From an uncultured virus (IMG/VR IMGVR_UViG_3300028129_000011) (taxonomy: Duplodnaviria; Heunggongvirae; Uroviricota; Caudoviricetes), in the IMG/VR virus record IMGVR_UViG_3300028129_000011: a DNA stretch of 64,000 bases. The stretch is one strand, 5' to 3'. Under the pieces are notes generated by a model. It ran no database searches and was not told the DNA's origin. It saw only the letters and a list, made by a program, of their open reading frames with translations. Position 1 is the first letter of the stretch; each line of letters starts with the position of its first letter. The translations under genes were made by a program, and so were the position numbers. This document shows, in pieces, positions 44,178 through 64,000 of the stretch.

Positions 44178-47100
44178 ATGAATGAAGTTAAAAACGCTTT
44201 TATAAAGTCTAAAATGAATAAAGATCTTGACAGTAGATTAATACCGTCAGGAGAATATAGACATGCTCAAAACTCTCAAGTTAGTAAGTCAGAGGGTTCT
44301 GATGTTGGTTCTTTGGAAAATATATTAGGTAATAGTTTAGTTGCTGATTTAACTGATGGTAATCCTAATGTAAACTCTATAGGATACTTTGCTGATAACA
44401 CTACTAGTGTAGTGTATGTTTTTTTAACTGATAATAATAATGCTAGCGGAGCTTATGATCCAAACGCTGTTAATATTATATTTAAGTATGACATAAACTT
44501 AAATACAGCTACTAAGTTAGTTGAAGGCGCTTTTTTAAATTTCCATAAATCTTATCCTATATTTGGTGTTAACTTATTAGAAAATCTATTATTTTGGACA
44601 GATAATAGAAACCAACCTAGAAAAATAAACGTAGATAAAACTCTAGGATATTATACTACTGAAGATCATATATCTGTAGCTAAATTCTATCCCTTCAAAA
44701 GTATAGATCTTTTTAGAGAAAGTCCACTCGCAGCTTTAAATTATGAAACAACTATGCAAGATGTTGTTAGTAAAAACTTACCTAACGGAGGTAGTGCTAC
44801 TATAAGTGCAGCTGTTGTGAATTCTAATACATTTGATATATCTAACTTAAACATACCTGTAACACCTAATACACTTGAGCAAGGTTTTACTGTTAGTTAT
44901 ATCGACGCTAATGGAGATATTGTAGACACAAACGAAACTATATCTTCTTTTACTGACCCTACAGTAACTCTAACTGGAAACGTTAATATACCACTAACAA
45001 CAACGGTTACTCAGATAATATTCAATGCTAATCCATACTATGATAAAAATTACTCAGGTGATATTTCTTTTATAGAAGATAAATTTGTTAGATTTAGCTA
45101 TAGGTTTAAGTTTGATGATGGAGAATACTCTTTAGTAGCACCATTTACTCAATCTTGTTTTATACCTAAGCAAGACGGTTATTTCTTAAATAAAGATCAA
45201 GATATAGTAGGTCCAGATGCTAGCGCTACTGGTGATGAGTTACAAGCGATACAATCTACTATAGTTAAATTCATGGAAAACAAGGTAAATAAGATTTATC
45301 TACAAATACCATTACCTACTACTAAAAGTAATTTTAATTCTTCATTTCACGTGCAAGAAATAGATATTATACTTAAAGAATCTGATGGTTTAGCTTTACA
45401 AGTTTTAGACACTATAGAAGTAGATCAAAACTTCACTGGAACTGAAAATGTTTTAGAGTATGAGTATTTAGGTAAAAAACCTTACAAAACCTTACCATCA
45501 AACGAAGTTACTAGAGTGTATGATAAGGTACCATTAAAAGCTTTAGCTCAAGAAATTATAAGTAATAGAGTTGTTTATGGTAACTATATCAATAAACCAA
45601 CTCCACCTAGCTTTTTAAACTATAATGTATCTGCAACTGAAAAATATGATTTTAACTTAAATGAAAATAGAACTAGTGTTGTTGAATATCCAAGTAGTAG
45701 TTTAAAAACAAATAGAGAATATCAAGTTGGTTTTGTTTTAGCTGATAGATATGGTAGACAGTCATCTGTAATATTATCTAACAATAAAGATGCAATAACA
45801 GTAGGAAATACAACATACACTGGATCTTCTTTATTTTCTCCTTATATAGATCAAAATGTAGGAGATAATATAGATTCTTGGTTTGGTAATTCTTTAAAAA
45901 TACTTTTAAATGACCCAATACCTAGTGGGATTACAGGTATATATAATGACGATATAAATAGTCCAAATTATAACCCGACTGGTTGGTACTCTTATAAAAT
46001 TGTTGTTAAGCAAAACGAACAAGAATACTATAACGTATATGCTGCTGGCGCAGTTAAAGGTAACCCTTTTAATAATACTGTAGACCTCAATAATACTTAT
46101 ATAAGTTTAGAAAGTGATAATATAAATAAAGTACCTAGAGATTTATCAGAAGTTGGTCCAGATCAAAAACAATATAGAAGTTCTGTTCGTTTATATCCTA
46201 GAGTAAATATACTTAATAGATTAAATTTAAACCAAGGTGATGATAATATTCAGTTTTACCCTGGTAATAACTTTTTTACTGTGGATAGTATACAGGATAT
46301 GTATGACACTTTCAATATAGAAAGATTTGATGCTACAGTTAGTACTTCAGAGCTATATATGTTTCAAAACGCTAAATCAAATCCACTATTAGCCAGAGTT
46401 ACAACATCTTCAGATCCTAATGAACAATTTGGTATAATAGCTGATGATCCTTTAAGTTCTGGTTCTATGAAAAACCTAGTTGTTTTAGAGACTAATCCAG
46501 TAGTATCTAGATTAGATATATTTTGGGAAACTTCTACATCTGGCATAATAAAAGACTTAAATGAATCTGTTGCTGGTAATAATTATGTAACAGATTTTTC
46601 TTCATCTTTTGATAATACTTTTTTCAGTGAGTCACTAGATGTTGATGACAATATATTTAATGCTTCGTTTACACCTGTTAACTCTATAGGCGCTAACATA
46701 ACTCCAGGTTGGATAACTAGCTTTACTCTTGATTATGTTAAAAACACTCAGTCTACACCTCTAGATGTTTCTAGTTATTTTACTTTTTATGAAGTAGATC
46801 CATCAGGTAATCCTGGTTTTTACAATATAAAGGTAACTAATGATTTTGTAAATAACATATTCTATGGTTCAGACGTTTCAAAAAGAGAGTTTGATTTTAG
46901 ATTTTCTATAACTATCACGGAACCAGGTCAGCAACCAGTGACATCTATAGTAGATAAAATATTATCTTTAACAAATGATGCGCCTACTATGACGCCTAAT
47001 CAAACCTTAAACATAGACACAGATGGTTCTACAGCTAATTTAACAACTCTAACATCTGTAAATGGAGCTAGTACAAACAGTCCTAATAAAGGTAAAGATA

Positions 47101-47663
47101 TTAGTTGGTTTATACAATCACAATCTGGAGCTAATTCAGGTACTGTTAATTATTTTCGCGTTTCTTTTTCAAACACAGATTCATTATCAACATGTATTCT
47201 TCAAAACAATAACGTTGGTAATTTACCTGCTGATATATACACCGTTGTTGTAAAAACTGAAGATGCTGGTGGGTTAACAGATTCTATAACTATAACGATA
47301 AACAACTCTGTAGAAATTGGAACTGTCACTGAATATACATTTACGGATAGCTCAGGTGGTTTACCTCAAGAGTATAATTTTGTTGTAATAGAAGTAACAG
47401 GTGCATCTGATCCTAGTTTAGAAGGTTATTATGCTTACATAGGCACTTGGAGTATGTTATCATTTGGTTTTACAGTTGAAATAGATAACACTAACAGCGT
47501 TGGTCAAGGATCTTGTCCATCACCTTTAAACGGTGGTTGGATACTTGGAAGTAATAATAACGTAGTTGTAAGTCAAGCTACTGATTGTTTGGTTCCTGGC
47601 TTTAGTGGGTTGGTTACATCAGACAATCCAGATACTCGTGGATATGTATTTACCATAGTGTAA
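44178..47663 (+). CDS. Tail stabilisation/nozzle protein, N-terminal part
   Basis: F..SKMNKDLD.RL.P.GEYR.A.N, LFWTD.RNQPRKIN, RFSYRF, NRVVYGNY. Confidence 0.75.
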   Translation: MNEVKNAFIKSKMNKDLDSRLIPSGEYRHAQNSQVSKSEGSDVGSLENILGNSLVADLTDGNPNVNSIGYFADNTTSVVYVFLTDNNNASGAYDPNAVNIIFKYDINLNTATKLVEGAFLNFHKSYPIFGVNLLENLLFWTDNRNQPRKINVDKTLGYYTTEDHISVAKFYPFKSIDLFRESPLAALNYETTMQDVVSKNLPNGGSATISAAVVNSNTFDISNLNIPVTPNTLEQGFTVSYIDANGDIVDTNETISSFTDPTVTLTGNVNIPLTTTVTQIIFNANPYYDKNYSGDISFIEDKFVRFSYRFKFDDGEYSLVAPFTQSCFIPKQDGYFLNKDQDIVGPDASATGDELQAIQSTIVKFMENKVNKIYLQIPLPTTKSNFNSSFHVQEIDIILKESDGLALQVLDTIEVDQNFTGTENVLEYEYLGKKPYKTLPSNEVTRVYDKVPLKALAQEIISNRVVYGNYINKPTPPSFLNYNVSATEKYDFNLNENRTSVVEYPSSSLKTNREYQVGFVLADRYGRQSSVILSNNKDAITVGNTTYTGSSLFSPYIDQNVGDNIDSWFGNSLKILLNDPIPSGITGIYNDDINSPNYNPTGWYSYKIVVKQNEQEYYNVYAAGAVKGNPFNNTVDLNNTYISLESDNINKVPRDLSEVGPDQKQYRSSVRLYPRVNILNRLNLNQGDDNIQFYPGNNFFTVDSIQDMYDTFNIERFDATVSTSELYMFQNAKSNPLLARVTTSSDPNEQFGIIADDPLSSGSMKNLVVLETNPVVSRLDIFWETSTSGIIKDLNESVAGNNYVTDFSSSFDNTFFSESLDVDDNIFNASFTPVNSIGANITPGWITSFTLDYVKNTQSTPLDVSSYFTFYEVDPSGNPGFYNIKVTNDFVNNIFYGSDVSKREFDFRFSITITEPGQQPVTSIVDKILSLTNDAPTMTPNQTLNIDTDGSTANLTTLTSVNGASTNSPNKGKDISWFIQSQSGANSGTVNYFRVSFSNTDSLSTCILQNNNVGNLPADIYTVVVKTEDAGGLTDSITITINNSVEIGTVTEYTFTDSSGGLPQEYNFVVIEVTGASDPSLEGYYAYIGTWSMLSFGFTVEIDNTNSVGQGSCPSPLNGGWILGSNNNVVVSQATDCLVPGFSGLVTSDNPDTRGYVFTIV

Positions 47664-47690
47664 TAAGAATGAAAAATAAGTAATAATTAT

Positions 47691-49091
47691 ATGGGAGCAG
47701 TTATAGAAGTTAAATATTTTAACACTTTTCTACTTAGAAAAACAAATAGAAATGTATCAGGTGGAGGAAGTTCTACTCAGTCTCCAGCTTGGAATGGTTC
47801 CACAGGTATACCTAGTTCTGTTAACGGTGGGTATCCTGTTATTGATAGTGCAGATATTGTAGATAATAATTGGGTGATAGAGGAATCTAGAATAAGAGGA
47901 GGATACAATAATACAAGTGTAGATTTTGGAGTTAGAGCTTATGTAGTAGAAGACGAGCCTAAAGGTTTTAGAAGAGCAAATTCTTTAATATACTCAGGCA
48001 TATTTAATTCTAGAACAGGTATAAATAATACTAATGTATTTTCTGTAGGAGAAGAAATAACTAAATCAGCTGACCCAGCTAATGGCAGTATACAAAAGCT
48101 ATATTCTGAAGACACAAACCTTATTGTGTTACAAGAATCTAAAGTTTCTAGAGCTTTAATAGATAAAGACGCTATATATAGTGCTGAAGGAGGAGGTAGT
48201 ATAACTAATGTTAATACTACTATAGGCACAATACAACCTTATGCTGGTAATTTTGGTATAAGTAGAGATCCAGGTAGTTTTGCCGTTTATGGATATAGAA
48301 AGTATTTTACAGATAGAGATAGAAATACAGTTATAAGATTATCAATGGATGGCATCACTGAAATATCTAGATACGGTATGAGTGATTACTTTAGAGATGA
48401 ATTTTCTAATATTGATACATCTGGTTTAAGTGGCGTTGTAGTAGGTGGTTGGGATACGTACAACAAGCAGTATGTTATTTCAACTATGACTAATATTAAT
48501 TCAACTAATAATAGTTATAATACGTTATCATTTGACGAGGATGTTAAAGGTTTCCCTAGTTTCTTTACTTACAAACCTGATCAAATGTTCAGTGTTAGAG
48601 GTAGTTTCTATAGTTTAAAAAACGGTAGAATATGGAAACACTATAGTGACGACGTTAATAGAGGTAGTTTTTACGGAGATAATTCTTATGACACTACTAA
48701 AAGCTATATAGAATTCGTATTTAATCCAAACGTTAGTGCATCTAAAGTTTTTAAAACAATAAACTATGAAGGCAGTAATGGTTGGAAAGTTGAAAGTTTT
48801 ATAACCGATGTTGGTGATAAATCTAACATTGTATACAGTTACAACGAAGGAGCTTATCAAGAAGGTGGTGTGACTTATAGAGTTGGTTTTAATAATAAAG
48901 AAAATAAATACCACGCAGACTTAATAAATAACTCAGGTGTAAATCCTGGGGAAGTTGTATGGGGTAACAACATGACAGGTGTTAAAGGGTATTTTAGCAC
49001 AGTTAAAGTATCTACAGATCAAACAACAGACCCTGGTGGTTTAAAAGAGTTATTTGCTGTGTCATCTAACTTTGTAGAATCATCTTACTAA
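47691..49091 (+). CDS. Tail stabilisation/nozzle protein, C-terminal-like part
   Basis: GSIQKL, FGISRDP.SF, YFTD, GITEIS.YGM.DYF, KVFKTINYEG. Confidence 0.7.
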   Translation: MGAVIEVKYFNTFLLRKTNRNVSGGGSSTQSPAWNGSTGIPSSVNGGYPVIDSADIVDNNWVIEESRIRGGYNNTSVDFGVRAYVVEDEPKGFRRANSLIYSGIFNSRTGINNTNVFSVGEEITKSADPANGSIQKLYSEDTNLIVLQESKVSRALIDKDAIYSAEGGGSITNVNTTIGTIQPYAGNFGISRDPGSFAVYGYRKYFTDRDRNTVIRLSMDGITEISRYGMSDYFRDEFSNIDTSGLSGVVVGGWDTYNKQYVISTMTNINSTNNSYNTLSFDEDVKGFPSFFTYKPDQMFSVRGSFYSLKNGRIWKHYSDDVNRGSFYGDNSYDTTKSYIEFVFNPNVSASKVFKTINYEGSNGWKVESFITDVGDKSNIVYSYNEGAYQEGGVTYRVGFNNKENKYHADLINNSGVNPGEVVWGNNMTGVKGYFSTVKVSTDQTTDPGGLKELFAVSSNFVESSY

Positions 49092-49120: not shown

Positions 49121-51358
49121 ATGCCTATACCATTAGTAGCAGCGGGTTTAATAACCGGAGGAGCACAAATATTGTCAGGTATATTTGGTTCTAGTCAAGC
49201 AGCAAGAGCTAGAAGAGCGGCAGCAGCTGAAAAGAAAAGACTAAGCAATAAATTAGAAAGCCTAGAAAATAGTAGACAAGCAATAGTAAATCCATATGCC
49301 AATGTAGAAAACTTATCTGGCATGATTGATAACCCTTATGAAAACCTAGGTGTAGCTACTCAAGCAGCAGAAATGCAAGCTGAGCAAGCTGACATAGCTT
49401 TAGCTAATACTTTAGATACTATAATGGCAACAGGCGCTAGTGCTGGTGGTGCAACCGCTTTAGCTCAAGCAGCTTTACAATCTAAAAAAGGTATATCAGC
49501 TAGTATAGAAATGCAAGAAGCTCAAAACGAAAAACTAAAAGCTCAAGGTGAACAACAAGCTCAACAATTAAAAATGCAAGAAACTGCTAGAGTACAAGGT
49601 TTAGAAGCTAGAGGTAAAGAATTTATGTTTAACGCTCAAGAAACTAGAGAAATGCAGCAGTTAGATAGAGTTTCAGCTCAATTAGCTGGTGCTCAAGCTA
49701 GAGAAGCACAAGCTAGAGCAGATCAAACAGGTGCAATAACAAGTGCTATTGGTGGAGTTGCAAGTACTTTTGGTAGTATGGCTTCAGCTGGAGTTTTTAA
49801 AGGTGGTAGCGGTGCTACTGGTGGTTTTAACCCTGGTTTTACCATTGATAGAAGTCCAATAAAAGTTTAATATAAAATGAGTTATAGAAATCCACAACAA
49901 GTAATAGATACGCAAACAGGTCAACATTATAGAAATTTACAAAATGTTATATCCAGTACGTTTGCAGGTGTAGCTCAAAGCTATAAAGCTGAGCAAGATA
50001 AATTAGAAAAAGAGCAAGAAGCAAGAGAAGCTAGAAATAAAGCAATAGTAGATTTCAATCAAAAGCAAGAAGACGCTATGATGAGTAGTGTCGCGAAGTT
50101 AAAAGCCAATAACCCTACATTAGATACATCGTCTATATACGATATGATTGATATGTATAGTGATATTAAAAACGCTATAGATTTGGGAACTATAACTGAC
50201 AAAGAAGAGCTTAGAAAAATGAGAGAGCAATTAGCTCAAATAAAATCTATACCTGACGGCTTAAATACTTCTCTAGTTGGTTTTGGTGCGTTATCTGAAG
50301 ATTTTACTGAGTACATGGCTAAAGCTGGCAAAAAAGGTGGTTTAGATTTAAAATCAGCAGATACTACATTGTTAAATCACTTAAATGTTTTCTTAAATAA
50401 AAGAAAAGGAGAAAGAAAGTTTCAAACTCAGTTTGATGAAAACGGTAATATGCGAACTGGTATATTTTTAAAATCAAGTGAAGAGAGTGATGAGGGTAAA
50501 TTCTACACTAAAGATGAGCTAGTTTCTTATATGGATGGTGTTACAGGTGGTTTACCAGCAATACCAGATGATACTGAAGCTTCGGAAGAACTAATGAGTA
50601 ATGTTTTTGGTATAGATCCAATTACTAAAAAAAGAACTATGCCTACACCAGGTATTGTAGATAAAATTAATGTTAGACAAAGAGATGGTAGCATTAAAGT
50701 TGAAGAAAGAATAAACGAAGAAAAATTAAAAGAAAAATTAAAACCTATTGCTTTAGGTAATGTTTCTTCTTGGGGTGACAATGGTATAGTGTCTTTTTAT
50801 AACAACATGTTAAAATCAGGTGAACTTTTAAAAGATAAAGACGGTAAAGAAATTAAAGTTTTAACAACTGAAAATATAGATGAAGATACGAAAAATAAAA
50901 TAACAGATTTGTATCTAAACAAGTTTATAAAAGACAAAGGTATATTAAACTATGGCAAAACCTTAGAAAAAGATACAACAACAAAAAGACCTAACATTTA
51001 TTCAGGTAGTAATAATAAATCTAATAAAAAAGTAGAAATAGACACTTCTTTTATAGATGAAATGGATATAACTTTAGAAGGTGAATTTCCAGGTGCGGCT
51101 GTTGATTTTGACAAAATAGAGCTAACTTTAAAGAAAGAAGGTTTTAGAGTACTTAGTGAAAGATTGGTTGATGGCAAGAAGGAGTTAGATATAACAAAAT
51201 CAGTTAAAGGTGCTGATAATTCTGTAACTATAACTGAAGATATGACTCCTAAACAAATAAAAGACTTGTTGAAACTTGTTGAAACAGGATCATTACCTAA
51301 AGAAGATAAAGAACCGACAGGTTCAGAGGACGATCCATTTATCTACAAACCACAATAA
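49121..51358 (+). other. Two putative ejection/internal virion proteins (49121-49870 Ala/Gln-rich; 49877-51358)
   Basis: Gly/Ala-rich hydrophobic N-terminus and coiled coils; located before the giant protein. Confidence 0.6.
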
Positions 51359-51371
51359 AAAATAATATAAT

Positions 51372-54300
51372 ATGCCTAAGTATAAATTATCAAGCGGTAA
51401 ATTCATTATAGTTAAAGATGATGATGTTCAAGACTTCTTAAACTCAGATATCGGTAAAGGAGCTACGGTTGTAGAAGAAATAGCCACTCCTGTAGTTACA
51501 GAAGATTATGTTAAAACACCAGGTATAGACTTTGATGATTACTTAAAACCAGCAAAGACCGAAGACTCTGCGAGTGCGGATCCAACTGTGGAGTCAAAAG
51601 ATATGGGATCCAAATTGGTAGATGGTTCTTTGGAATTCAAAGAATCTAATCAACAAGCTTTATTAAACTATAAAAAAAGAACTGGCAAAGAAGCAGGTTC
51701 TATAATGGATTTATCAGATGAAGACTATGAAACTCCTTTAGATAAATTTAAACCAGTAGACTATAATAAAGTAGTAATAAATGGTAGAAAAAAAATAAAA
51801 AACTACGCTGACGAAAGAGTAAAGCTTGCGAAAAAATTAGAAATATTTTCTTATGATCAATTTGGAGCAACAAACGAAGCTGTAGATTATGTTAAGCAAG
51901 GTTTAAAATCTTTTGATAAAAAAGTTGATAACGAAGTTAAAAATCTAGAATTAAACGACGAGTTTAAATTAAGAAACGATGCTTTAAATCAATTAATTAA
52001 AGACACTGGTAACACACAAGCTACAGGAGAAGCTGTTAAGGATGTAGGTAGTGAATTTAATGTTTTAAATGTATTTAGAGGTGCTAGTTACTATAAAGAC
52101 ATAGAAGCTGATGAAGTTATTTCCTTAAACGATGAAGTAGAGCAGAGCGTTTTAGATAAGTTAGATAAAAGATCTTTGCAGAAATTAGCTGGTGGTTTCT
52201 ACACGTTACAAGAAAAAGAAAACTTGATAAATGAGTCTAAGTCAAGTATAATAGATACTAGAATAAAAACTTATAAAGATAATTTAGATAAAGCTACGTT
52301 TAACGTAGAGTCTAAATTAGATAATAATAAAAAGAAACTTAAAGAGCTTGAAAGTTTTATTAATCCTTTAGAAAATAGAGAAGACTTAACTCAAGAAGAA
52401 GCTAATAACTATAACGATGCTGTTAATCAATATAATAGCATATTAGCTGAATCTAAAAATATAGTAAAAGAGTATAATGAATACAAAACTATTGAAACTC
52501 AAAAAGTAGAATCATTAGAAGGTGAATTTGGTTTCGATGTAGCTAAAGGCGTTTTAAGAAACAACTTTAAGCTTACAGACAAAGTAGAGAAGTTTAGAGA
52601 AAAATATTCCGGTGAAGGTTTCTGGAATGGCGCCGCGGATATATTAGGAGGTGAAGTTCTTCAAGGTTTTTATCAGACAATGAAAAAAGCAACTGTCGGT
52701 AGTGTTACTTGGGCTATGGCAAACAGCGCTGATTTGCTCACGGATCAAGACTCTTATTCAGCTTATGATGCTTTTAGTGACGTTATTAATAACTGGTCAA
52801 ATAAAACATTGGTACCTAGATCAACTAGTGAGGAATTTGATATAACAAAAAAAGAAGGTGGCTTTAAAGATTTCTCAGCTAGAAATTATGCTAAGCTAGG
52901 TGCTTCTATGGTTCCATTTACAGGTTACTTAATAAGCGAAGTAAGGAAAGGTAAATACAATAACATAAAACAAGCTATAGGTGATACGTATTTAAAGTTT
53001 GGAAATAAAGGTAAAGTATTAAAAGACGCTTCACAAACCCTAAAAAACAACATCATAATGGTTGATGCTACTTTTAGAGCAACTATACTTGACAACCAAA
53101 AAGAAGCTGAAGCTAAAGGTTTTAACGGCTTAAAAGCAAACTCTTATGCAACTACAGTTTCAGCTACTGAAGCTATGGTACAAATGATAATGCCAGATAC
53201 ACAGTTTTTAAAAGGTGTTAAAGGTAAAGCTATTTTAGATAATTTCACTGGCTCTTTGAAAAAAGCAGCTAATAAACAAGCTGTGATATCAGCTGGTAAA
53301 GAATTTACTACTAACGTGTTAAAAGAATACGGTGAGGAAGAGATAAATGCTTTTGCTAACATGATAACAGACGTTTCTTATGGATTAGCACTACCAAAAA
53401 CTAGTGACTTTTTAAACGAACAAATACAACTAACAGCTGGTACTTTGATGCTAAGTGGTAGCATGGGTTTAGTAGGTGCTGCTAATACTTATAGTAATCA
53501 AAAAAAGCTTGTATACAATCAAATACACGAAAACATAAACTCTTTAAACACTCACTTATTAGAGATAGCTAGAAAATCTAAAAACATTGAAGTCAAAGAT
53601 GATATAGTAAAAGCTATGAAATTTGCTAAAGATGTTAGTCAAGCTATTGAATCTTCACCTGAAAACGTTACTTCTGATCAAATAGATCTTTTAATAAAAA
53701 AGAAAAACCTTATCGATAAAAAATCTAAGACAGATAAATCTTTTCATGTAGCTATAGATAAAAGCATTAACGAGATTAATGAAAAAATAGAAGCTGGCTC
53801 AATAAGGGAAAACGTAAGAAATAAGTTTGACGCGGATATAAAAAATATAAGTAAATCTTTAAATTCATCTGGAACAAGAGTAGATGAAACTATAGTTTTT
53901 GAAGATTCTGATGGTAGAACAGCAGCAGAAAAAATGAAAGAAAAGCTTTTAGAGCTTGGTAAGTCTGAAGAATTTGCTGAAGCAAATAAAAACTCATATG
54001 GTGCTTTTATAGTGGATAAAAACGGTAAAGAGTTGTTAATAGTAAACAAAGAAGCTGCTGTTGCTAATAGTGTTGTGTCTACTGGTCAACATGAGTTTTT
54101 ACATAAACTACTAAGATCTAGGTTTAAAAACAAACCTGAAGAGCTAAAAAAAGCTGCTAACTTATTAAAAGAGGAAGTAGAATCTATAAACAAAAAAACA
54201 GGTCAAGGTTATGATTTTATTAGTAGATTAAAAACATACGAAGAAGATTTAGCTGAAGGAAATCTTAGCGAAAGCGGTTATTATGAAGAGGTGTTTACTC

Positions 54301-57300
54301 TTTTTTCAGAAGCTTTATCTAGTAAAGATATAAAAATAAATAAAAGCACTATAGGAAAAATTGGAGATTTTATTAGACAATCTTTTCAAAACGCTGGGTT
54401 TAAGAAAATAAAATTCAACAACGCTGACGACGTTAAAAACTTTATAATAGACTACAACAAAGCTTATTCCAAAGGTAAGATTAAAGGTTCTTTAGCTGGT
54501 AAAACTAAAAGCTTTGCTATAGGATCTTCTATTTCTCTTAGTAAATCAGTTGAGCAGATACAAAAAGAAATTATAGCTTTAGAAGAACAATATGATGAGC
54601 AAACTATAGACTACTATGATTTCGAAAATAGAATGGATATACTTGAAGCTGAATTAGAGAAAGCTAAAAAAGCTCCTAAGGAAACTCAAGTAAAACCTGT
54701 TAAAAAATCTACTCAATTAAGCGTACAAGATATAAAAGATCAAATAGAACAACTAGATGAAGATTTATATAGCGGAGTTATAGATGACATTGACTACGAG
54801 CAAAGATTAGATTTATTAGAAGAGAGATTAAAGCAAGCTGAATTAAGAGCAACTAATCCTAAAAAAGCTCAAGAGAATCAAGATAAGATAGTAAAACAAT
54901 CTATAGATAAATTCAAAAAAGAAGTATCTGAAGAAACAGTATCTGATAAAAACAAGAAAATAGCTAAAATAAACGAAGATATAGCTAATGAAATGTTGGA
55001 ACTAGGTGCTAATCAAGTTTCAGATATAGAAGATCCTATTAAGCGTAAACAAATAATAGATAAGTTAGGTAGGAATAACTTAGGTGCTGTAACTAATTTG
55101 ACAAAAAGAGCAGCAGCTGCAGGTAAAAACCTAGCTATAGATGATAACCTTAAAATAGGTTATGATGAGTTTTTCTCTGGATTTAGTGAAGAATTATCAG
55201 CATTGATAAAATCATATAAGGTTGAAGTTGACGGTAAGAGAGTACCTTTTGGTGCTTACATGAATAAAAACTTACCTTTAAGATATGGACAGATATTAGA
55301 TAATGCTTTAAAAGGTAGAATAGAAGGTTCTAAGAGCTTAGATGTTCAAGCTGGAGAGAAAGGTTATGCTGGATCTATAATAGCTGATAGAGCAGCAGAT
55401 TTCGATGCTACTACTAGTGCTGAAATGGGATTACCTGTTGATGATCTTATAGATGTAACTACTTTTAGAAAAGTTAAAGATAAAGTAGAAACAATAAAAG
55501 AAAGTATAGATTTAACAGATGTTGACTTAGATAACTTAACTTATAGAAAAATACAAGATGATTATTCTGGTCAAGTTGGTGCTGAGTTAATTGGTATGTG
55601 GGATAGAAACGCTAAACCTGAAGCTGATCAAGATAGAAATGATTTCCAAAAACTAGCAGAAAGAATAGAAGGTACTAGAACTTTAAACTACGGTAAAGAT
55701 ACTGGTGGTGAAGCTGAGGTTAGAGCTATGCAAGGTTTATTCTTAGACTACAATGATGCTGTTAAGTTTATAAAAACTATGCCTGAATTCAATGTTGCTC
55801 CTTTTGAGACAACTATCGATGAACAAGGTAGATCTATAGATTTAACTGAAGATGCTAGAGGTTACAGTACAGGTATATCAAATAAATTACTTAAAGAGTT
55901 TTACGAACCATACATTGATCCAAAATCTAAAAGTTCTGACAAAGGCACTAAAAGTAGAGCAATAACGTCTCCTTCAGGTAGAGGTAAAGGTAAAACATCT
56001 CAAGTAGCTAAAGTATATAGATTAAAACCTGAGTACAGAGGTAAAATATCTAGACAAACAGTACAAGAGTTACAAAAAAAAATAGGTATAACACCTGCTG
56101 GTGAAGCATTCATACCTATGAAAGGTAAAAATAGAACTGAATTTGGTACTGCTTTACAAGGTTTAACTAAAATGTATGCTACTAACGTAGCTAATACTAT
56201 AATTAGAAAGAAAATTGTAGAAGAAGGTCTTAGCTCTGAAAGAAAAACACCTGAAAAACTATTAGCTGACATAGGTGGTGGTAAATCTAGTATTATGTTT
56301 AGTAGAGCAGCTGACCTAGGTTTAAATGTTCCTTTTGAAACACCTCAGTTAGGTAATGTATTGTTTTCTAAAAAAGCTAGAGCCGAATACGAAAGTGTAC
56401 TTAGAAATAAGAGACCTGATTTAGAAAATCCAAGAGAACAAGTAGATGAGTTAATAAAGTGGGGTGATGCTTTAAATGTTAAAGAAAATAAGAAGGCTAA
56501 GTACAAGAAGTTAGCGTTATATTATATGGCTAACGGCTTTGTTATAATGCCAGAAGATGGTTACAAGGTTGTAGAAGCTATTAGGTTGGGTGAAGCAAAT
56601 AAGGTAGATCCATACACTGTTAAAAACCCTAACGAACTTATAGAGAGATATCAAGCTAAAACTAAAGGCGCTAGAATAAATCCAGACGAAGTTGAACAGT
56701 TTTCAAATAAAAAAGCTTTAAAAGAAGGCGTTGTTGTATATGATGTTGAAGATTCTAAGAAAGGGCAGTTAGCTTTAAGGAAAGTTATTGACACTAATTG
56801 GGGTTATAAAGCAAACCCTTGGTGCTTAGCGGCTAGATCTGACGGGGCTGATTACATAGAAACCAACGAAGCAGAATCTAGAGAAGAAGCTGAAGAAATG
56901 ATCGCTGATTACAAAGAAGCAGGGTATCATGCTAAAATAGAAGGTACTTACACACATAAAGGTAAAGAGATTTTTGAGATAGCAGTATCTGAAATTGATA
57001 AAGACCCTGAAAAGCTGAGTCAAGCTTTTAAACTGTGGAAAAGTTATAATGAAGAAGGTAATGGTTTTAAAATAGCTTTTCAAAACGGTAAATTAATTTC
57101 TTTTAGAGATGGTGACAAAATGGAATGGTGGGATAGAATGGATAGAGGTTCTGTAAATATACCTTTGAAACCGTTAGATAAAAGCAAAAAACAACACTTA
57201 AAAAACTTAAATGAAGAAAAACAAATGGATCCTGAAACAGGTGAAGTTTTTATTTCAAAAAGAATTACAGAAAACACTATAGATGGTGGTGCTATCGAAA

Positions 57301-60300
57301 AGATAACTTATGTTGCAAATCCTGATACTAGAGAGCTTATAATAAACGAAAGGTCGAAAAAATTAGAAATAAAAGAAAATATTCTTGAAACTGAAGAACA
57401 AAAGTACGATGAAAATGGCCGTTTAATTGAAGAGATAAATACTATTGCTGATGAAAGTAAGGGAACACACGTTGAGACTACAATAAACACAAGATATGAT
57501 AAAAAAGGTGATGTTACTGGTACATACAAAACTATTAATACCTTAGGTGAAAAGTTTTACCAATCTGAAAGAATATTTAACGACGAAAACAATGTCTATA
57601 TTAAACTCATAGAGTTAGCTGATGCAAAAGTGTTTTTTGAAAATAGTGTTTATTTATACAAAGAATCTAACGGAAAAGTAATTGAAGAAATAGATAACAG
57701 AAAGAAGTATGGTTTTGATGAAAATGAATTTTTAGATAGTGTTGTTAATGTCTCATTTAGTACTTCAGCTTTAGCCGATGTTTTAATAACTGACATATTA
57801 AAAAGAGAATATGGTTACAATAAAAAAGGTAAACTACCTAAAATCAAAGGTAATAAAAAAGAATTAAATAAAATAATAACAAATCTTTTAAATATAAACA
57901 ACTTTGAAGATGAAGAAGCTTTCAACGATTACGTAGAAACATTACTTCCAATGCAAAGAGACATTGTTAAACGTGTTTTTGAAGGTAGATATTGGATGTT
58001 TGGATTGTATTCTGATGAAAAAGCTGCAAACAACGGTATAAAGTATGAAAAACTTATTAGAAAAGCTATAAAAGAGTCTGGGGTCAAAGGTGTCAGCGTG
58101 GAATTTAGTGAAGGTGGTTTTAGTAGTGGAACTGATTTAGTTTTAACTATTAAAGGTAAAAATATAAACATAGAATTAAAGCTGAATAGAAAAGCTCAAT
58201 TTGGTAGTTTTATGGTGAAGCAAGAAGGAGATAAATATATTTATACTTCTGGTATATCTGGTTTACAACAAAGTTTACCTGACTTGCACGAAGAGATACA
58301 AAACCAACTTAAAAGTGAAAAATATAAAAAAGCTGTAAAAGAGTATATTAACAAAGGTAGAAGCCTAGCTCAAAAACTTGGTGTATATTTCAAATATAAC
58401 GAAGATACTAATACTCTAAAAACAACTAAACAGGTTTTTGAACAGTTAGCTACTGATGGGTATTTAAAGAAAACAAACTTAACTATAAGAAAAGACTCTA
58501 AGGGTAATTTGTTAAACGAAGACTTAATAAACACGCTGTACAATAACAAGGATGTATACTATATAGAAATAGGTGGTAAAGGTCTTTATTATCTAAAAGA
58601 AAACAAAGATAATCTAAATATACCAAAATTGGAAGGTAATACTAGTCTAGTTATAAGAAATACTTATAATCAAATAGGTAAAACTGGAATATATCAATCA
58701 TTGTTGAGAGGTTTTATTAAGTTAGATTCAGATATAGTTGATTCTAATATAAGTTTTGCTGATGTAGATAGTATTAAAGAAAATTTACAAGATATTTCCG
58801 GTACTAGTTTTAGTAAAGGTAGACTCGACGCTGAGTTTAACAAAATAATAGAAAACAAAACTGGTATATTAGCGACTGACGAAATATCTGAGGTTAAAGC
58901 TAAAATGATAGCTAATAACAAAAGAAGTTTTAATATATTTATTCCTCCTTCAGCTGAAGATTTCGTAGGTTTATTATATGCTACTTTAGGTAAAGGCAAG
59001 GTTGGAGAGAAGCAAATGATGTTTTATGACAGAACATTAATCAGACCTTACGCTAGAGCTATGCAAGCTATAACTAGAGACAGAATTGATCTAGGTAAAT
59101 CTTTTAATAAAATTAGAAAGCAATTCAACGCTACTCCTAAAGATCTTAAAAAGAAAGTACCTAACAGTTTATTTACTAAAGAGCAAGCGGTAAGAATTTA
59201 CATATGGGATAGTATAGGAAAAGAGGTTCCAGGTTTAAACGTGGAAGAAGTTAATGAATTAGCTAACTATGTAGCTGATAACAAAGAGCTTAGGGATTTT
59301 GCTGATCAAGTTATGAGGTTAAACCCGGGTTCTGCATATACTTCACCAGGTGAAACTTGGACAACTGGTACTATTACAACAGACTTGCTTGAAACCCTAA
59401 ACGAATCAAGAAGAGCTAAGCATTTAGGTAGGTGGCAACAAAATGTTGATGAAATATTCTCTAAAGAAAACTTAAACAAATTAGAAGCTGCTTACGGTAC
59501 TAGTTATAGAAAAGCAATGGAGAACATGCTTACTAGAATGAAAACTGGTAGAAATAGAACGTATGGTACGGATTCACAAACAGCAAAATGGATTGACTGG
59601 GTTAATGGATCTGTTGGTACTATAATGTTCTTGAACGCTAGATCTGCTGTACTTCAAACAATATCTGCAGCTAACTTTATAAACTTTGGTGATAACAATG
59701 TATTTGCCGCTGGTAAAGCATTTGCTAATCAAAAACAATACTGGTCAGATTTTGCTTTTTTAATGAACTCAGATTATTTAGTAGAAAGAAGAGATTCGTT
59801 AAAGATAAATATAAACGAAGCTGATATTGCTGAAGCTGCTCAAAAGAAAGGTGCTAGAGGTGCTATAAACTATTTATTAAAACTAGGATTTACACCTACT
59901 AAATTCGCTGATAGCTTTGCTATAGCTTCCGGTGGTGCTACTTTTTATAGAAATAGATTAAATGCTTTAATAAAGAAAGGTATGGATCCTGCTGCTGCAG
60001 AAAAAGCTGCAATGAGGGATTTTATAGAAAAATCAGAGGAATCTCAGCAGTCAAGTAGACCTGATAAAATAAGTCAGGAGCAAGCGGGTCCATTAGGGCG
60101 TGTTATATTAGCTTTTGCGAATACACCAGCACAATATGCTAGAATCATAAAAAAAGCCGCTAGTGACCTTAAAAACAGACGAGGCAGTGATAAAGAGAAC
60201 ATATCTAAGATTATATATTATGGTTTAGCTCAAAACTTACTATTTAATGCGCTTCAACAAGCTATATTTGCAGTTGCTTTTGGTGATGAAGAAGATGAAG

Positions 60301-60851
60301 GTGCATTAGACGATAAAAAGTTAAATATAGTTAACGGTATGTTAGATGGTATTATTAGAGGTACTGGAGTTGGTGGTGCAATATTTACTGTAGTTAAAAA
60401 CTCTGGTTTAAGAATATATAAAGAATCTAATAAGAAAAGACCTAACTACGAATCAGTTGTTGATGAAGCTTTAAAAATATCTCCACCTATATCATCAAAG
60501 ATCTCTAAATTAAAATCCGCTGGTAGAACTTTCACTTGGGATGCTAAAGAAATAAAAGGTAAAGGATTAGATATAACAAACCCAGCTATTGGCGCTAGTG
60601 CTAAGATATTGTCTGCAGGTACTAACTTACCTTTAGATAGGGTTGTTAGAAAAATAGAAAACTTAAAAGCTGCATCTGACAGTGAACTAGAAACATACAA
60701 GCGTTTAGCTTTAGTGTTAGGTTGGGGTAAATGGGAGTTAGGTATTAAAGATGAAAAGTGGAAAGATCCAAATGCAAAACCTAAAATAAAAAATAATACA
60801 AGAAAAATAAAACAAAGAAAAATAAAACAAAGAAAAATAACAATAAGATAA
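51372..60851 (+). CDS. Giant (3159 aa) multidomain ejection/polyvalent protein
   Basis: HEFLH zincin (~54090), sigma-2-like segment (~55040-55350), WC-containing PcfJ-like segment (~56700-57150), D..ExK nuclease (~58130-58185). Confidence 0.75.
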   Translation: MPKYKLSSGKFIIVKDDDVQDFLNSDIGKGATVVEEIATPVVTEDYVKTPGIDFDDYLKPAKTEDSASADPTVESKDMGSKLVDGSLEFKESNQQALLNYKKRTGKEAGSIMDLSDEDYETPLDKFKPVDYNKVVINGRKKIKNYADERVKLAKKLEIFSYDQFGATNEAVDYVKQGLKSFDKKVDNEVKNLELNDEFKLRNDALNQLIKDTGNTQATGEAVKDVGSEFNVLNVFRGASYYKDIEADEVISLNDEVEQSVLDKLDKRSLQKLAGGFYTLQEKENLINESKSSIIDTRIKTYKDNLDKATFNVESKLDNNKKKLKELESFINPLENREDLTQEEANNYNDAVNQYNSILAESKNIVKEYNEYKTIETQKVESLEGEFGFDVAKGVLRNNFKLTDKVEKFREKYSGEGFWNGAADILGGEVLQGFYQTMKKATVGSVTWAMANSADLLTDQDSYSAYDAFSDVINNWSNKTLVPRSTSEEFDITKKEGGFKDFSARNYAKLGASMVPFTGYLISEVRKGKYNNIKQAIGDTYLKFGNKGKVLKDASQTLKNNIIMVDATFRATILDNQKEAEAKGFNGLKANSYATTVSATEAMVQMIMPDTQFLKGVKGKAILDNFTGSLKKAANKQAVISAGKEFTTNVLKEYGEEEINAFANMITDVSYGLALPKTSDFLNEQIQLTAGTLMLSGSMGLVGAANTYSNQKKLVYNQIHENINSLNTHLLEIARKSKNIEVKDDIVKAMKFAKDVSQAIESSPENVTSDQIDLLIKKKNLIDKKSKTDKSFHVAIDKSINEINEKIEAGSIRENVRNKFDADIKNISKSLNSSGTRVDETIVFEDSDGRTAAEKMKEKLLELGKSEEFAEANKNSYGAFIVDKNGKELLIVNKEAAVANSVVSTGQHEFLHKLLRSRFKNKPEELKKAANLLKEEVESINKKTGQGYDFISRLKTYEEDLAEGNLSESGYYEEVFTLFSEALSSKDIKINKSTIGKIGDFIRQSFQNAGFKKIKFNNADDVKNFIIDYNKAYSKGKIKGSLAGKTKSFAIGSSISLSKSVEQIQKEIIALEEQYDEQTIDYYDFENRMDILEAELEKAKKAPKETQVKPVKKSTQLSVQDIKDQIEQLDEDLYSGVIDDIDYEQRLDLLEERLKQAELRATNPKKAQENQDKIVKQSIDKFKKEVSEETVSDKNKKIAKINEDIANEMLELGANQVSDIEDPIKRKQIIDKLGRNNLGAVTNLTKRAAAAGKNLAIDDNLKIGYDEFFSGFSEELSALIKSYKVEVDGKRVPFGAYMNKNLPLRYGQILDNALKGRIEGSKSLDVQAGEKGYAGSIIADRAADFDATTSAEMGLPVDDLIDVTTFRKVKDKVETIKESIDLTDVDLDNLTYRKIQDDYSGQVGAELIGMWDRNAKPEADQDRNDFQKLAERIEGTRTLNYGKDTGGEAEVRAMQGLFLDYNDAVKFIKTMPEFNVAPFETTIDEQGRSIDLTEDARGYSTGISNKLLKEFYEPYIDPKSKSSDKGTKSRAITSPSGRGKGKTSQVAKVYRLKPEYRGKISRQTVQELQKKIGITPAGEAFIPMKGKNRTEFGTALQGLTKMYATNVANTIIRKKIVEEGLSSERKTPEKLLADIGGGKSSIMFSRAADLGLNVPFETPQLGNVLFSKKARAEYESVLRNKRPDLENPREQVDELIKWGDALNVKENKKAKYKKLALYYMANGFVIMPEDGYKVVEAIRLGEANKVDPYTVKNPNELIERYQAKTKGARINPDEVEQFSNKKALKEGVVVYDVEDSKKGQLALRKVIDTNWGYKANPWCLAARSDGADYIETNEAESREEAEEMIADYKEAGYHAKIEGTYTHKGKEIFEIAVSEIDKDPEKLSQAFKLWKSYNEEGNGFKIAFQNGKLISFRDGDKMEWWDRMDRGSVNIPLKPLDKSKKQHLKNLNEEKQMDPETGEVFISKRITENTIDGGAIEKITYVANPDTRELIINERSKKLEIKENILETEEQKYDENGRLIEEINTIADESKGTHVETTINTRYDKKGDVTGTYKTINTLGEKFYQSERIFNDENNVYIKLIELADAKVFFENSVYLYKESNGKVIEEIDNRKKYGFDENEFLDSVVNVSFSTSALADVLITDILKREYGYNKKGKLPKIKGNKKELNKIITNLLNINNFEDEEAFNDYVETLLPMQRDIVKRVFEGRYWMFGLYSDEKAANNGIKYEKLIRKAIKESGVKGVSVEFSEGGFSSGTDLVLTIKGKNINIELKLNRKAQFGSFMVKQEGDKYIYTSGISGLQQSLPDLHEEIQNQLKSEKYKKAVKEYINKGRSLAQKLGVYFKYNEDTNTLKTTKQVFEQLATDGYLKKTNLTIRKDSKGNLLNEDLINTLYNNKDVYYIEIGGKGLYYLKENKDNLNIPKLEGNTSLVIRNTYNQIGKTGIYQSLLRGFIKLDSDIVDSNISFADVDSIKENLQDISGTSFSKGRLDAEFNKIIENKTGILATDEISEVKAKMIANNKRSFNIFIPPSAEDFVGLLYATLGKGKVGEKQMMFYDRTLIRPYARAMQAITRDRIDLGKSFNKIRKQFNATPKDLKKKVPNSLFTKEQAVRIYIWDSIGKEVPGLNVEEVNELANYVADNKELRDFADQVMRLNPGSAYTSPGETWTTGTITTDLLETLNESRRAKHLGRWQQNVDEIFSKENLNKLEAAYGTSYRKAMENMLTRMKTGRNRTYGTDSQTAKWIDWVNGSVGTIMFLNARSAVLQTISAANFINFGDNNVFAAGKAFANQKQYWSDFAFLMNSDYLVERRDSLKININEADIAEAAQKKGARGAINYLLKLGFTPTKFADSFAIASGGATFYRNRLNALIKKGMDPAAAEKAAMRDFIEKSEESQQSSRPDKISQEQAGPLGRVILAFANTPAQYARIIKKAASDLKNRRGSDKENISKIIYYGLAQNLLFNALQQAIFAVAFGDEEDEGALDDKKLNIVNGMLDGIIRGTGVGGAIFTVVKNSGLRIYKESNKKRPNYESVVDEALKISPPISSKISKLKSAGRTFTWDAKEIKGKGLDITNPAIGASAKILSAGTNLPLDRVVRKIENLKAASDSELETYKRLALVLGWGKWELGIKDEKWKDPNAKPKIKNNTRKIKQRKIKQRKITIR
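51552..51611 (+). promoter_or_regulatory. Candidate -1 ribosomal frameshift signal
   Basis: GCA AAG, 6-nt spacer, stem 51564-51575/51585-51595, loop GGATCC pairing with GGATCC 51606-51611. Confidence 0.65.
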
Positions 60852-62360: not shown

Positions 62361-64000
62361 TTAACCGTCACAGCTTAAACAGCTTTCATCCATAGCTTGT
62401 TGAGCTATATCTCCACGTAAAACACTTTCTGTTCTAGTATAATACAAAGTTTTAACACCTTTTTTCCAAGCTTCAAAATGAACTTTATTAATCCATTTAG
62501 GAGTAGCTTCTGATGGAAAAGCTAAATTTAAACTTACAGATTGATCAATATATTGTTGACGAATACCTGCTTGATTAACTAACTCTAACTGATTGATTTC
62601 TTTAAACGTTTTAAAAACATCTTTAACTTTATCATAATCAGTTTCTTTTAAATCAGGATTGTCAGATATTTTAGTTAATTTTCTATTAACATAACCCCAA
62701 TTATCAAGTTCTTCAATATCTTGTATACTACCTCCGTCAGCTAATATCTTGTCCCAAACCTGTTTAGTATTAATACCTATTTTTCTTAATACTTTAGTTA
62801 ACTCTTTATTTTTTCTTATAAACGTCCCTTTGGCTGATTGTTCTGTGAAAACATTAGCAGCCCAAGGCTCAATCCCAGGAGAAACGTTACCAGATAATTT
62901 AGAGTTAGATACAGTAGGAGCAATCGCACGAAGATGAGTATTACGCATGCCAGTACCCACACACCATAAAGGTTCTCCATAAATTTCAGCAAGATCCCTA
63001 GAAGCTCTTTCGCTTTCAATTTTGACCTGCGAAAAAATCTTCCTAGTTTCAAACTGCGCAAGTAAGCCTTCAAAAGGTATACCTCTTTCTTGGAGATATG
63101 TATGCCATCCAAGTACTCCCAAGCCCAAAGCACGCCCTTTTGTTGCTGATCTAACACTATTCTCGAAACCTCTAAGTCCTTTTGCTCTTTGTATAAATTC
63201 TTCCATAACACCATCAAGAAAGTAAATGGCGTCATATATAAGGTTAGTATCTTTCCATTCGTCATATTTTGCTAAATTTAATGATGATAAACAACATACA
63301 AAACTATGTGACTCATCTGTATGTAATGTAATCTCAGAACATATATTTGTCATATGAACTTTTAATCCATTGTCTTTATATGCTTTTGGATTTGATTTAT
63401 TAGTGTTTCCTTTAAATAATATATATGGCTCTCCAGTTGCTTTTCTTTTTCTAAGTAATTTACTCCACTTAGTTCTTGCTTCTGCATCTCCTTGTTCAAG
63501 TTTTCGCATAAACTTATCACCAATAACTGCACACTGGTGTAAATTAAGCGATTGTCTATTAACGTCGCCTTTAGGTTCTCTAATTTCAAGCCACTCTTCA
63601 AAATCGTCGTGCTCAATGTTAATATTAACCGATGCAGCTCCTCTTCTAACTGATCCTTGATTAGTTGCGAGGATTGTTGAGTCATATATTTTACAAAAGG
63701 GTACAACCCCGTCTGATGTTCCATTTCCTGTAATTTTAGCGCCGGCGGGTCTAATTTGATTAACTCCAATGCCAACTCCACCCCCGTGCTTAGCGAGTAG
63801 CATCATCTCTAAATTTTTACCACCTATATCTTGGATTGAGTCAGCAACGTCGATACCAAAGCAACTAATAGGTAAGCCACGATCTGTACCAGTGTTGGAA
63901 AGTACCGGAGAAGCAAGGCAAAGCCAACCATTCCAGATATAATTAAAAAAGTTTTCAGCCATCTCTGGCTTATATAATCTTCGAGCAACTGTTTTAGCGA
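62361..64000 (-). CDS. nrdA: Ribonucleotide reductase class Ia alpha subunit (5' end beyond the window; allele 2)
   Basis: TNICSEI, CCLSSLNL, RALGLG, IAPTVS, YIDQSVSLN, KTLYY, CLSCDG. Confidence 0.95.
   Translation of the reverse strand, partial: AKTVARRLYKPEMAENFFNYIWNGWLCLASPVLSNTGTDRGLPISCFGIDVADSIQDIGGKNLEMMLLAKHGGGVGIGVNQIRPAGAKITGNGTSDGVVPFCKIYDSTILATNQGSVRRGAASVNINIEHDDFEEWLEIREPKGDVNRQSLNLHQCAVIGDKFMRKLEQGDAEARTKWSKLLRKRKATGEPYILFKGNTNKSNPKAYKDNGLKVHMTNICSEITLHTDESHSFVCCLSSLNLAKYDEWKDTNLIYDAIYFLDGVMEEFIQRAKGLRGFENSVRSATKGRALGLGVLGWHTYLQERGIPFEGLLAQFETRKIFSQVKIESERASRDLAEIYGEPLWCVGTGMRNTHLRAIAPTVSNSKLSGNVSPGIEPWAANVFTEQSAKGTFIRKNKELTKVLRKIGINTKQVWDKILADGGSIQDIEELDNWGYVNRKLTKISDNPDLKETDYDKVKDVFKTFKEINQLELVNQAGIRQQYIDQSVSLNLAFPSEATPKWINKVHFEAWKKGVKTLYYTRTESVLRGDIAQQAMDESCLSCDG

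Follow-up and report, generated by a model that had tools for sequence, protein, structure and literature searches.

The sequence considered here, referred to as the window, is a stretch of 64,000 nucleotides (nt) from an uncultured virus (IMG/VR record IMGVR_UViG_3300028129_000011) placed in the Caudoviricetes. It contains an open reading frame (ORF) for a giant protein of 3159 amino acids (aa), and near the 5' end of this gene lies a compact group of elements (Table 1) that very probably constitutes a programmed -1 ribosomal frameshift cassette, acting at codon 62, through which the giant gene would be read in two forms. Codons 61 and 62 are GCA AAG (51552-51557), AAG being the minority lysine codon of the gene (70 AAG versus 299 AAA). 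Stem 1, beyond the spacer, has 11 pairs, two of them G.U, and one bulged G; RNAfold gives the same hairpin (-12.6 kcal/mol, in the top ~1.3% of the 50-nt windows of the giant gene). The GGATCC within its loop is complementary to a second GGATCC (51606-51611) that begins 10 nt past stem 1, and the site occupies an island with a G+C content of 0.45-0.50 in 60-nt windows, compared with ~0.2-0.35 in the surroundings. Read from 51557, the -1 frame encodes a 30-residue peptide up to a TAA stop (51647-51649). The whole -1 open run (51539-51646, 36 codons) has no ATG, GTG or TTG and is the longest of the 528 -1-frame runs in the gene. An earlier note on this DNA had described the A_AAG with its minority codon, the 6-nt spacer, the 11-bp bulged stem, the complementary hexamers in a GC-rich island and a -1 peptide lacking an ATG; each of these is present as described, and the absence of start codons extends to GTG and TTG.

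Table 1. Elements of the candidate frameshift cassette and the gene that carries it (positions in the window).
Feature	Position	Strand	Basis
Giant ORF, 3159 aa, zero frame, cassette near 5' end	51372..60851	+	ORF translation
N-terminal segment, codons 1-62, common to the giant protein and the predicted short product	51372..51557	+	translation, relatives
Slip site A_GCA_AAG; effective motif is the tetramer A_AAG (51554-51557)	51551..51557	+	sequence, relatives
Spacer, 6 nt	51558..51563	+	sequence
Stem 1 hairpin, 51564-51575 with 51585-51595, 9-nt loop 51576-51584	51564..51595	+	RNAfold, covariation
Stem 2, 5' arm, GGATCC inside the stem 1 loop	51578..51583	+	complementarity, covariation
Stem 2, 3' arm, GGATCC, over the -1-frame G-I-Q codons after the Y codon	51606..51611	+	complementarity; compensatory variants in relatives
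-1-frame extension, 30 codons and TAA stop	51557..51649	+	translation, relatives
Conserved tail block of the -1 peptide, YGIQIGRWFFG	51602..51634	+	conservation, pN/pS

Taken alone, the window makes a weak case, suggestive without being compelling, because the giant gene holds 26 in-frame A_AAG sites (two being full A_AAA_AAG heptamers) and the 98-nt fold has a z of only -1.93; the excess over chance comes from the relatives. The two heptamers lie at 53501-53507 and 53696-53702 (codons 712 and 777), and their -1 open runs are 21 and 5 codons long. A search of positions 51000-52200 against Rfam 15 returned no described frameshift element, only a chance small nucleolar RNA match below the gathering score elsewhere in that region.

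Residues 1-400 of the giant protein retrieved 17 proteins of 2381-3159 aa, five of which share the segment around the slip site; in three of these five (P0014-P0016) ~90 N-terminal residues are shared, with complete divergence afterwards. The DNA of the relatives L002/L003 and L004 retains A_AAG even where the preceding alanine is replaced by valine (GTA AAG). In these sequences the bulged G of stem 1 varies freely, and two A-to-G changes in the 3' arm of stem 1 convert U-A into U.G pairs, one of them costing the zero frame a Glu-to-Gly exchange; the window and both relatives alike keep an open -1 frame. A 28-nt hairpin pattern found 20 viral contigs. In each a long ORF carries the element at about codon 59-65, or at 97 in one case where an ATG lies upstream, and the preceding ~60 residues (about 59-65 aa) come from at least four unrelated sequence families. 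All 21 of these loci have A_AAG followed by a 6-nt spacer, and in all 21 the -1 frame is open for 29-33 codons, though the pattern imposed none of these features.

Two symmetric degenerate searches, one with the aligned -1 peptides and the other with the aligned zero-frame peptides, gave 184 confirmed loci and 28 loci, respectively. From the 184, 80 loci with 73 unique -1 ORFs were kept. At each of the 80 the -1 ORF is short (33-80 codons) and nested in a long ORF shifted by +1; the nesting ORFs reach 485-655 codons where the flanking DNA allows, and four short loci end at a contig end. By BLASTP, most of the long ORFs share only the cassette with the window protein over the first ~590 residues.

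A further set was assembled without reference to the cassette, using the conserved C-terminal domain only and 10 kb of flanking DNA. At least 550 relatives were found and 80 kept, of which 73 are complete genes and 68 have a unique 5' end. These 68 genes were then scanned with a profile derived from 66 -1 peptides. In the -1 frame of the first 400 codons it matches 39 of the 68, always between codons 32 and 123, whereas it matches none in the zero frame or the +1 frame of the same codons, and none in the -1 frame of the remainder of each gene. Given 39 of 68 against none of 68 in three controls, the cassette as recognized by this profile is common in the giant genes and specific in both position and frame.

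An in-frame A_AAG heads the -1 ORF in 70 of the 73 unique loci, as it does in the window; the three others have A-runs or G_GGA_AAT. The most frequent form is G_GGA_AAG (35 loci), followed by A_GCA_AAG (17), A_GTA_AAG (10) and G_GAA_AAG (3), with five other forms occurring once each. Slip sites in the 39 positives of the unbiased set include G_GGA_AAG (13), A_GTA_AAG (5), A_AAA_AAG, G_GAA_AAG, A_AAT_TTT/T_TTT_C and others. About half of the relatives have a full heptamer. In 32 of the 39 the stem-loop begins 5-8 nt past the slip site, and at many loci a -1-frame stop lies only a few codons upstream of the motif. In Escherichia coli, the available text of a study of such signals describes frameshift motifs as Z_ZZN tetramers or X_XXZ_ZZN heptamers, ranks tetramers combined with an IS3 pseudoknot A_AA.G >> U_UU.C > U_UU.U (0.26-5.6%) and counts G_GG.A_AA.G among the more efficient heptamers used by insertion sequence (IS) elements (PMC4066793). 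The tetramer classes of the present family (A_AAG, and U_UUU_C in some unbiased loci) are the top two of the E. coli order as given in that text.

Downstream of the slip site, 48 aligned cassettes were scored on stem 1 and stem 2 written as a pseudoknot. Of the cells, 89.8% are paired compared with 85.1% in shuffles (observed value reached in 0 of 500); eight pairs are changed on both sides (reached in 1 of 500), as are 27 cells (0 of 500), and the covariation score is 0.199 versus 0.135 in shuffles (0 of 500). Controls with the register slid pair only 30-53% of cells. In the lower helix of stem 1, 99.2% of cells pair and four of the five pairs carry compensatory changes. Stem 2 is paired in 84%, some of the apparently unpaired cells being one-base register shifts, and its compensatory changes are UA to CG in eight cells and CG to GC in four (alignment pairs 34-67 and 35-66). 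An anchored comparison, which took over from a per-sequence duplex search, gives cognate loop-to-anchor duplexes a mean of -7.80 kcal/mol versus -6.16 kcal/mol for non-cognate ones (0 of 5000 permutations), with several covarying hexamer pairs. The stem-loop falls in the top 5% of windows of its own gene at 56 of 67 loci; among the 39 unbiased positives, 29 reach the top 5% of the 50-nt windows and 20 the top 1%. In more distant subfamilies a stem occupies the same position although its sequence is quite different. A conserved, covarying structure thus lies downstream of the slip site, and in the window's subgroup its loop pairs with downstream sequence through compensatory changes, as in an H-type pseudoknot.

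The minimum free energy (MFE) structure that ViennaRNA predicts for the 98-nt stretch differs from this pseudoknot, being a nested fold of the two GGATCC hexamers with extensions and a 3' hairpin (51624-51646), and it was rejected as a conserved structure. Over 19 relatives 66.2% of its cells pair compared with 66.9% in shuffles (492 of 500 reach the observed value); it shows no compensatory changes, its extension pairs are broken in 9-16 of the 19 and its 3' hairpin is paired in 34.7%.

Selection on the two frames was compared in 19 unique hairpin-pattern sequences, over a 14-codon block that lies downstream of the hairpin and was not used in retrieval. The minimum numbers of changes at the three -1 codon positions are 14, 7 and 21, and it is the second position of the zero-frame codons that varies most. 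Pairwise ratios of non-synonymous to synonymous changes (pN/pS) rise from 0.35 for the -1 frame to 1.27 for the zero frame and 1.96 for the +1 frame; overlapping frames distort these values, yet the ranking of the frames is clear. In the tail, the -1 frame keeps Y, G, G, F and G without exception through synonymous codon changes, and the same nucleotide changes that are silent there flip L/S, M/T and D/A/V in the zero frame. This pattern indicates that purifying selection acts on the -1 frame. The -1 ORF has no start-type codon of its own before the tail block in 66 of 73 cases (an ATG in 2, any of ATG, GTG or TTG in 7), and its stop lies 14-19 codons after the tail Y in 70 of 72. The cassette also leaves an imprint on the zero frame, a DGS-S/L-E-like motif present in 17 of 17 aligned homologues.

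Comparison of relatives, at the level of sequence, thus establishes the slip site, its spacing, the covariation of stems 1 and 2 and the purifying selection on the -1 frame. Conservation of A_AAG, the stems and the -1 peptide in homologues had been named in the earlier note as a check on its proposal, and all three are conserved across many relatives. The H-type pseudoknot postulated there covaries beyond both shuffles and slid controls, and the proposed start-less -1 ORF, giving a 92-aa product beside the giant protein, gains comparative support from the 39 of 68 matches and from the pN/pS ranking.

Most ribosomes would read straight through the site to produce the 3159-aa protein. A fraction would pause with tRNA-Lys on the AAG of codon 62, held by the stem-loop or pseudoknot 6 nt downstream; the tRNA would re-pair one base back on AAA, and translation would go on for 30 codons in the -1 frame to the TAA. 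The resulting protein of ~92 aa would join the 62-residue N-terminal segment to a Cys-containing stretch and a YGIxIGRWFFG tail. Most likely, then, the gene also makes a ~92-aa side product with a conserved tail of its own. It is predicted that frameshifting occurs, that its level sets the ratio of short to long protein and that the short product is functional. With its shared N-terminal segment and conserved tail, the short product would suit a partner protein supplied in a ratio set by the RNA signal; our leading guess is an adaptor or chaperone that works via the segment common to both proteins.

Among 1.84 billion protein representatives, a profile search picked out 22 small proteins (P0019-P0040; 54-110 aa) that carry the tail at the C-terminus, preceded in the same frame by N-terminal segments of the kinds seen in the cassette genes; the -1 tail is otherwise essentially never annotated by gene callers. 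Ten of them were examined. Their clusters have at most two members, on single contigs that are mostly short, and several of the proteins switch frame away from the slip site; on these grounds they are read as indel artefacts or rare variants; a stand-alone gene family for the short product was accordingly rejected. Probably they carry indels in or near the slip site that mimic the transframe product. One look-alike, P0021, reads exactly as the transframe product would and was used as a structural proxy for the 92-aa protein. The AlphaFold model (mean predicted local distance difference test score, pLDDT, 70.8) has four helices at ~80, a disordered Cys-containing stretch below 50 and a tail modelled as a beta-hairpin at ~60, a hint only that the tail block folds in this way. 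The phage is present in seawater metagenomes and metatranscriptomic libraries. RNA-library contigs that cross the site show 0 differences and 0 gaps, a collinearity that argues weakly against indels at the transcript level, given that contigs drop rare variants and that the libraries may contain DNA.

Several points weigh against the frameshift interpretation. The 98-nt fold is unexceptional, 10 of 200 shuffles folding equally well, and a GC-rich island would on its own both remove off-frame stops and stabilize folds. The slip site of the window is only a tetramer, and in the available text of the E. coli work tetramers reach no more than 5.6% even with a strong IS3 pseudoknot (PMC4066793). 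The per-sequence test of the stem 2 duplex is weak (median percentile 0.08; 24 of 67 at or below 0.05). Several distant subfamilies have no loop-to-anchor pairing; stem 2 is therefore not universal and characterizes the window's subgroup, not every cassette. Within the stem 1 region the constraints of RNA pairing, zero-frame peptide and -1 peptide are inseparable, and the Cys codons of the -1 peptide may exist for RNA pairing rather than for the protein; the distortion of pN/pS by overlapping frames belongs here too. Most loci were ascertained through features of the cassette itself, and applying the -1 profile to the unbiased set again selects on -1 conservation. In 29 of 68 homologous giant genes the cassette is missing or unrecognizable, which means that the family does not require it.

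Other explanations account for parts of these data. Frameshifting could be real and serve mainly as attenuation, early termination keeping the costly 3159-aa protein low and the tail being a tag or a harmless by-product. The shift does shorten the product rather than extend it, the cassette lies very early (codons 32-123), where an abort saves most, and 29 of the 68 relatives manage without one; we nevertheless think this unlikely, and pure attenuation the weaker alternative to a partner protein, for attenuation alone needs neither a tail conserved as protein amid synonymous codon variation nor a -1 stop kept at a set distance from the tail Y. A structure as stable and covarying as this one might instead have a different function, for instance to slow translation while the N-terminal segment folds or is targeted, or to control mRNA stability; or the -1 ORF might be initiated internally, seven of the 73 -1 ORFs having an ATG, GTG or TTG before the tail block. 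That the other 66, and the window, have no start-type codon, that a slip motif heads the -1 ORF with a -1-frame stop a few codons upstream at many loci, and that the stretch of the -1 peptide conserved as protein comes only after the structure make this very unlikely.

The least likely explanation in our estimation involves no recoding at all: a zero-frame linker or processing motif would be conserved at a recombination junction between N-terminal and body domains, and the nucleotide conservation would reflect recent exchange. The giant genes are indeed mosaic, sharing mostly the cassette alone over their first ~590 zero-frame residues, or ~90 N-terminal residues before diverging in the case of P0014-P0016, and the DGS-S/L-E-like zero-frame motif is found in every one of the 17 homologues. 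Within the block, though, the zero frame has the higher pN/pS (1.27, as opposed to 0.35 for the -1 frame), and its L/S and M/T flips are synonymous in the -1 frame. A zero-frame motif also leaves the conservation of the slip site and the covariation of the stems unexplained, and each of the 80 loci has an open -1 frame when the mean -1 run in the giant gene is 5 codons.

The proposed mechanism is ordinary -1 programmed frameshifting and is closest in its signal to that of the IS3 family, which has the same motif class (A_AAG or A_AAA_AAG) and the same kind of stimulator, a 3' pseudoknot. The motifs G_GG.A_AA.G and U_UU.Y are likewise used by IS elements, the spacer of IS3 measures 5 nt, and the precedent of A_AAG with a 3' pseudoknot in IS3-type elements, to which the earlier note had appealed, holds in the text available (PMC4066793). 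The outcomes differ, since the IS3 shift extends orfA into orfB to give a longer fusion and the shift proposed here truncates a giant ORF. No Pfam transposase domain, such as the DDE domain of an IS3 orfA/orfB transposase, was found in the giant protein or its four quarters, and because of this, and because the gene lies in a phage virion module, it is not an IS3-family gene.

Closest in outcome are the dnaX gamma protein and CopA(Z), short products that share the N-terminus of a longer one. In E. coli dnaX (tau/gamma) a -1 shift on a lysine site ahead of a stem-loop yields a shorter product with the same N-terminus; there translation stops very soon after the shift and gamma comprises most of the full-length protein, whereas the cassette product would share ~2% of the ORF and add a conserved 30-residue -1 tail. 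In E. coli copA a -1 shift near codon 70, with a downstream structure, reportedly gives a short CopA(Z) protein consisting of the N-terminal domain beside the large protein; CopA(Z) has essentially no -1 extension. The dnaX motif is A-AAA-AAG in the text available (PMC1851650). A Pfam scan found no homology of the giant gene to dnaX, and copA is a cellular transporter gene without sequence relation to the cassette gene, which belongs to a phage virion module.

The lambda G/GT frameshift also lies in a structural module and provides two proteins with a shared N-terminus in a set ratio; its slip site is G_GGA_AAG, the form found in 35 of the 73 cassette relatives. The lambda shift lengthens its product and lies upstream of the tape-measure gene, whereas the product here would be shortened and the host gene itself encodes the giant protein, in a phage with a P22-like portal and a crAss-type muzzle domain. 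No extension of a small chaperone ORF upstream of a tape-measure gene, as in lambda-type G/GT, is found at the site. The putative cassette belongs to none of the IS3, dnaX, copA and lambda G/GT gene families. Conservation of tail-chaperone frameshifts has been described in the PRFect paper, which in its available part concerns tail chaperones (PMC10885494). In the openly accessible literature no description was found of frameshifting in Crassvirales or crAss-like phages, of this gene family, or of the short product or its tail; the Crassvirales texts accessible in part refer to frameshifts as sequencing errors or in general terms only.

A wider proposal, offered tentatively and with more doubt than confidence, is that a portable recoding module equips giant virion proteins with a small partner from the same mRNA. 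The partner, a helical N-terminal segment with a beta-hairpin tail, would act as an adaptor or chaperone in assembly or packaging, in a ratio fixed by the pseudoknot, following the logic of lambda G/GT by truncation; the module would be exchanged by recombination among unrelated N-terminal and body domains. Exchange is proposed because the cassette is often the only segment that these genes share. The mosaicism takes two forms: the window (51372-51640) and P0014-P0016, L002 and L004 share ~90 residues including the cassette and are followed by unrelated sequence, and, conversely, many loci share the cassette only.

The giant ORF sits downstream of terminase, portal, major capsid protein (MCP) and muzzle-like genes, as judged by Pfam and PHROG matches in the window. 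These matches (large terminase, P22-like portal, an MCP of family phrog_13704, tail-fibre genes) identify a phage. The Pfam domain crAss_MUZ_C (crAss-type muzzle C-terminal domain) matches a 466-aa protein (E 2.2e-10); with the portal, terminase and MCP PHROGs, it may point to the crAss-type virion module of a crAss-like or related marine Bacteroidota podophage. The MCP is 41-50% identical to those of a Flavobacterium elemo phage, Maribacter phage Panino and other phages, and resembles MCPs of phages recorded as Podoviridae or bearing the podovirus name code. The same MCP family is present on five of five diverse cassette contigs (E <= 1e-92), and the genes hosting the putative cassette are giant virion-module genes of many seawater phage contigs. 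Adjacent ORFs of 1161 and 466 aa (44178-49091) match the N-terminal and later parts of phrog_14478 (profile length 1474), a layout suggesting that one muzzle-like structural protein is split here or encoded by two genes.

The giant protein itself has no Pfam, PHROG or PDB sequence match, the whole protein and its four quarters all falling below the Pfam curated cut-off; a protein atlas relates it to unnamed viral clusters only, with a weak lead to LPD39 (polyvalent-protein domain; 28% of members). Its description in the earlier note as an ejection protein is unproven, position in the virion module alone pointing that way. A zincin-like HExxH signature, HEFLH (54090-54104, residues 907-911), occurs within the protein, and its H, E and H are invariant in 17 of 17 aligned homologues. 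The C-terminus (60760-60848) is a Lys/Arg-rich RKIKQ repeat, and similar basic tails end the homologues. No tRNA genes were found in the window. A gene for the large subunit of ribonucleotide reductase (62361-63998, minus strand; Pfam Ribonuc_red_lgC, E 2.6e-90) runs past its end.

In a collection of cultured phages, neither the first 2 kb of DNA, the first 1000 aa nor the C-terminal 680 aa of the giant gene found a match, and the -1 ORF gave chance-level hits only (E >= 4). The giant gene of the Flavobacterium elemo phage has no recognizable cassette. Maribacter phage Panino (PP540027.1, ~31588-31850; L216) carries a variant cassette at an A8 run: the record places the body of the large gene, with a GTG start at 31768 and the annotation 'tRNA methyltransferase', in a different frame from an unannotated ORF for the N-terminal domain, over which a minus-strand ORF is annotated. 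Its third frame reads the tail-like GRKWFIGF, then GGGWFFGI and a stop, and one more A would restore the standard layout; the A-run reflects either a homopolymer miscall or slippage. The freshwater Podoviridae sp. ctfjg026 (MW202828.1, 33384 onward; L215) has a 3859-aa gene annotated as 'reticulocyte binding/rhoptry protein', with a repeated helical N-terminal domain, an A_AAA_AAG site and, in the -1 frame, an ORF of 34 codons whose tail is degenerate; the profile gives it no score.

The cassette adds a large, previously unannotated class of candidate recoding sites in phages (at least 184 loci in one degenerate search, and 39 of 68 unbiased homologues). Its slip sites and covarying pseudoknots form a natural series that would be useful for deriving the rules of -1 frameshifting in Bacteroidota-type hosts, where to our knowledge almost nothing has been measured. 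Because the cultured phage Panino carries a variant of the cassette, the prediction is directly testable. It implies a hidden protein of ~90-100 residues that gene callers essentially never report, and so flags a systematic gap in the annotation of giant virion-module genes of marine phages.

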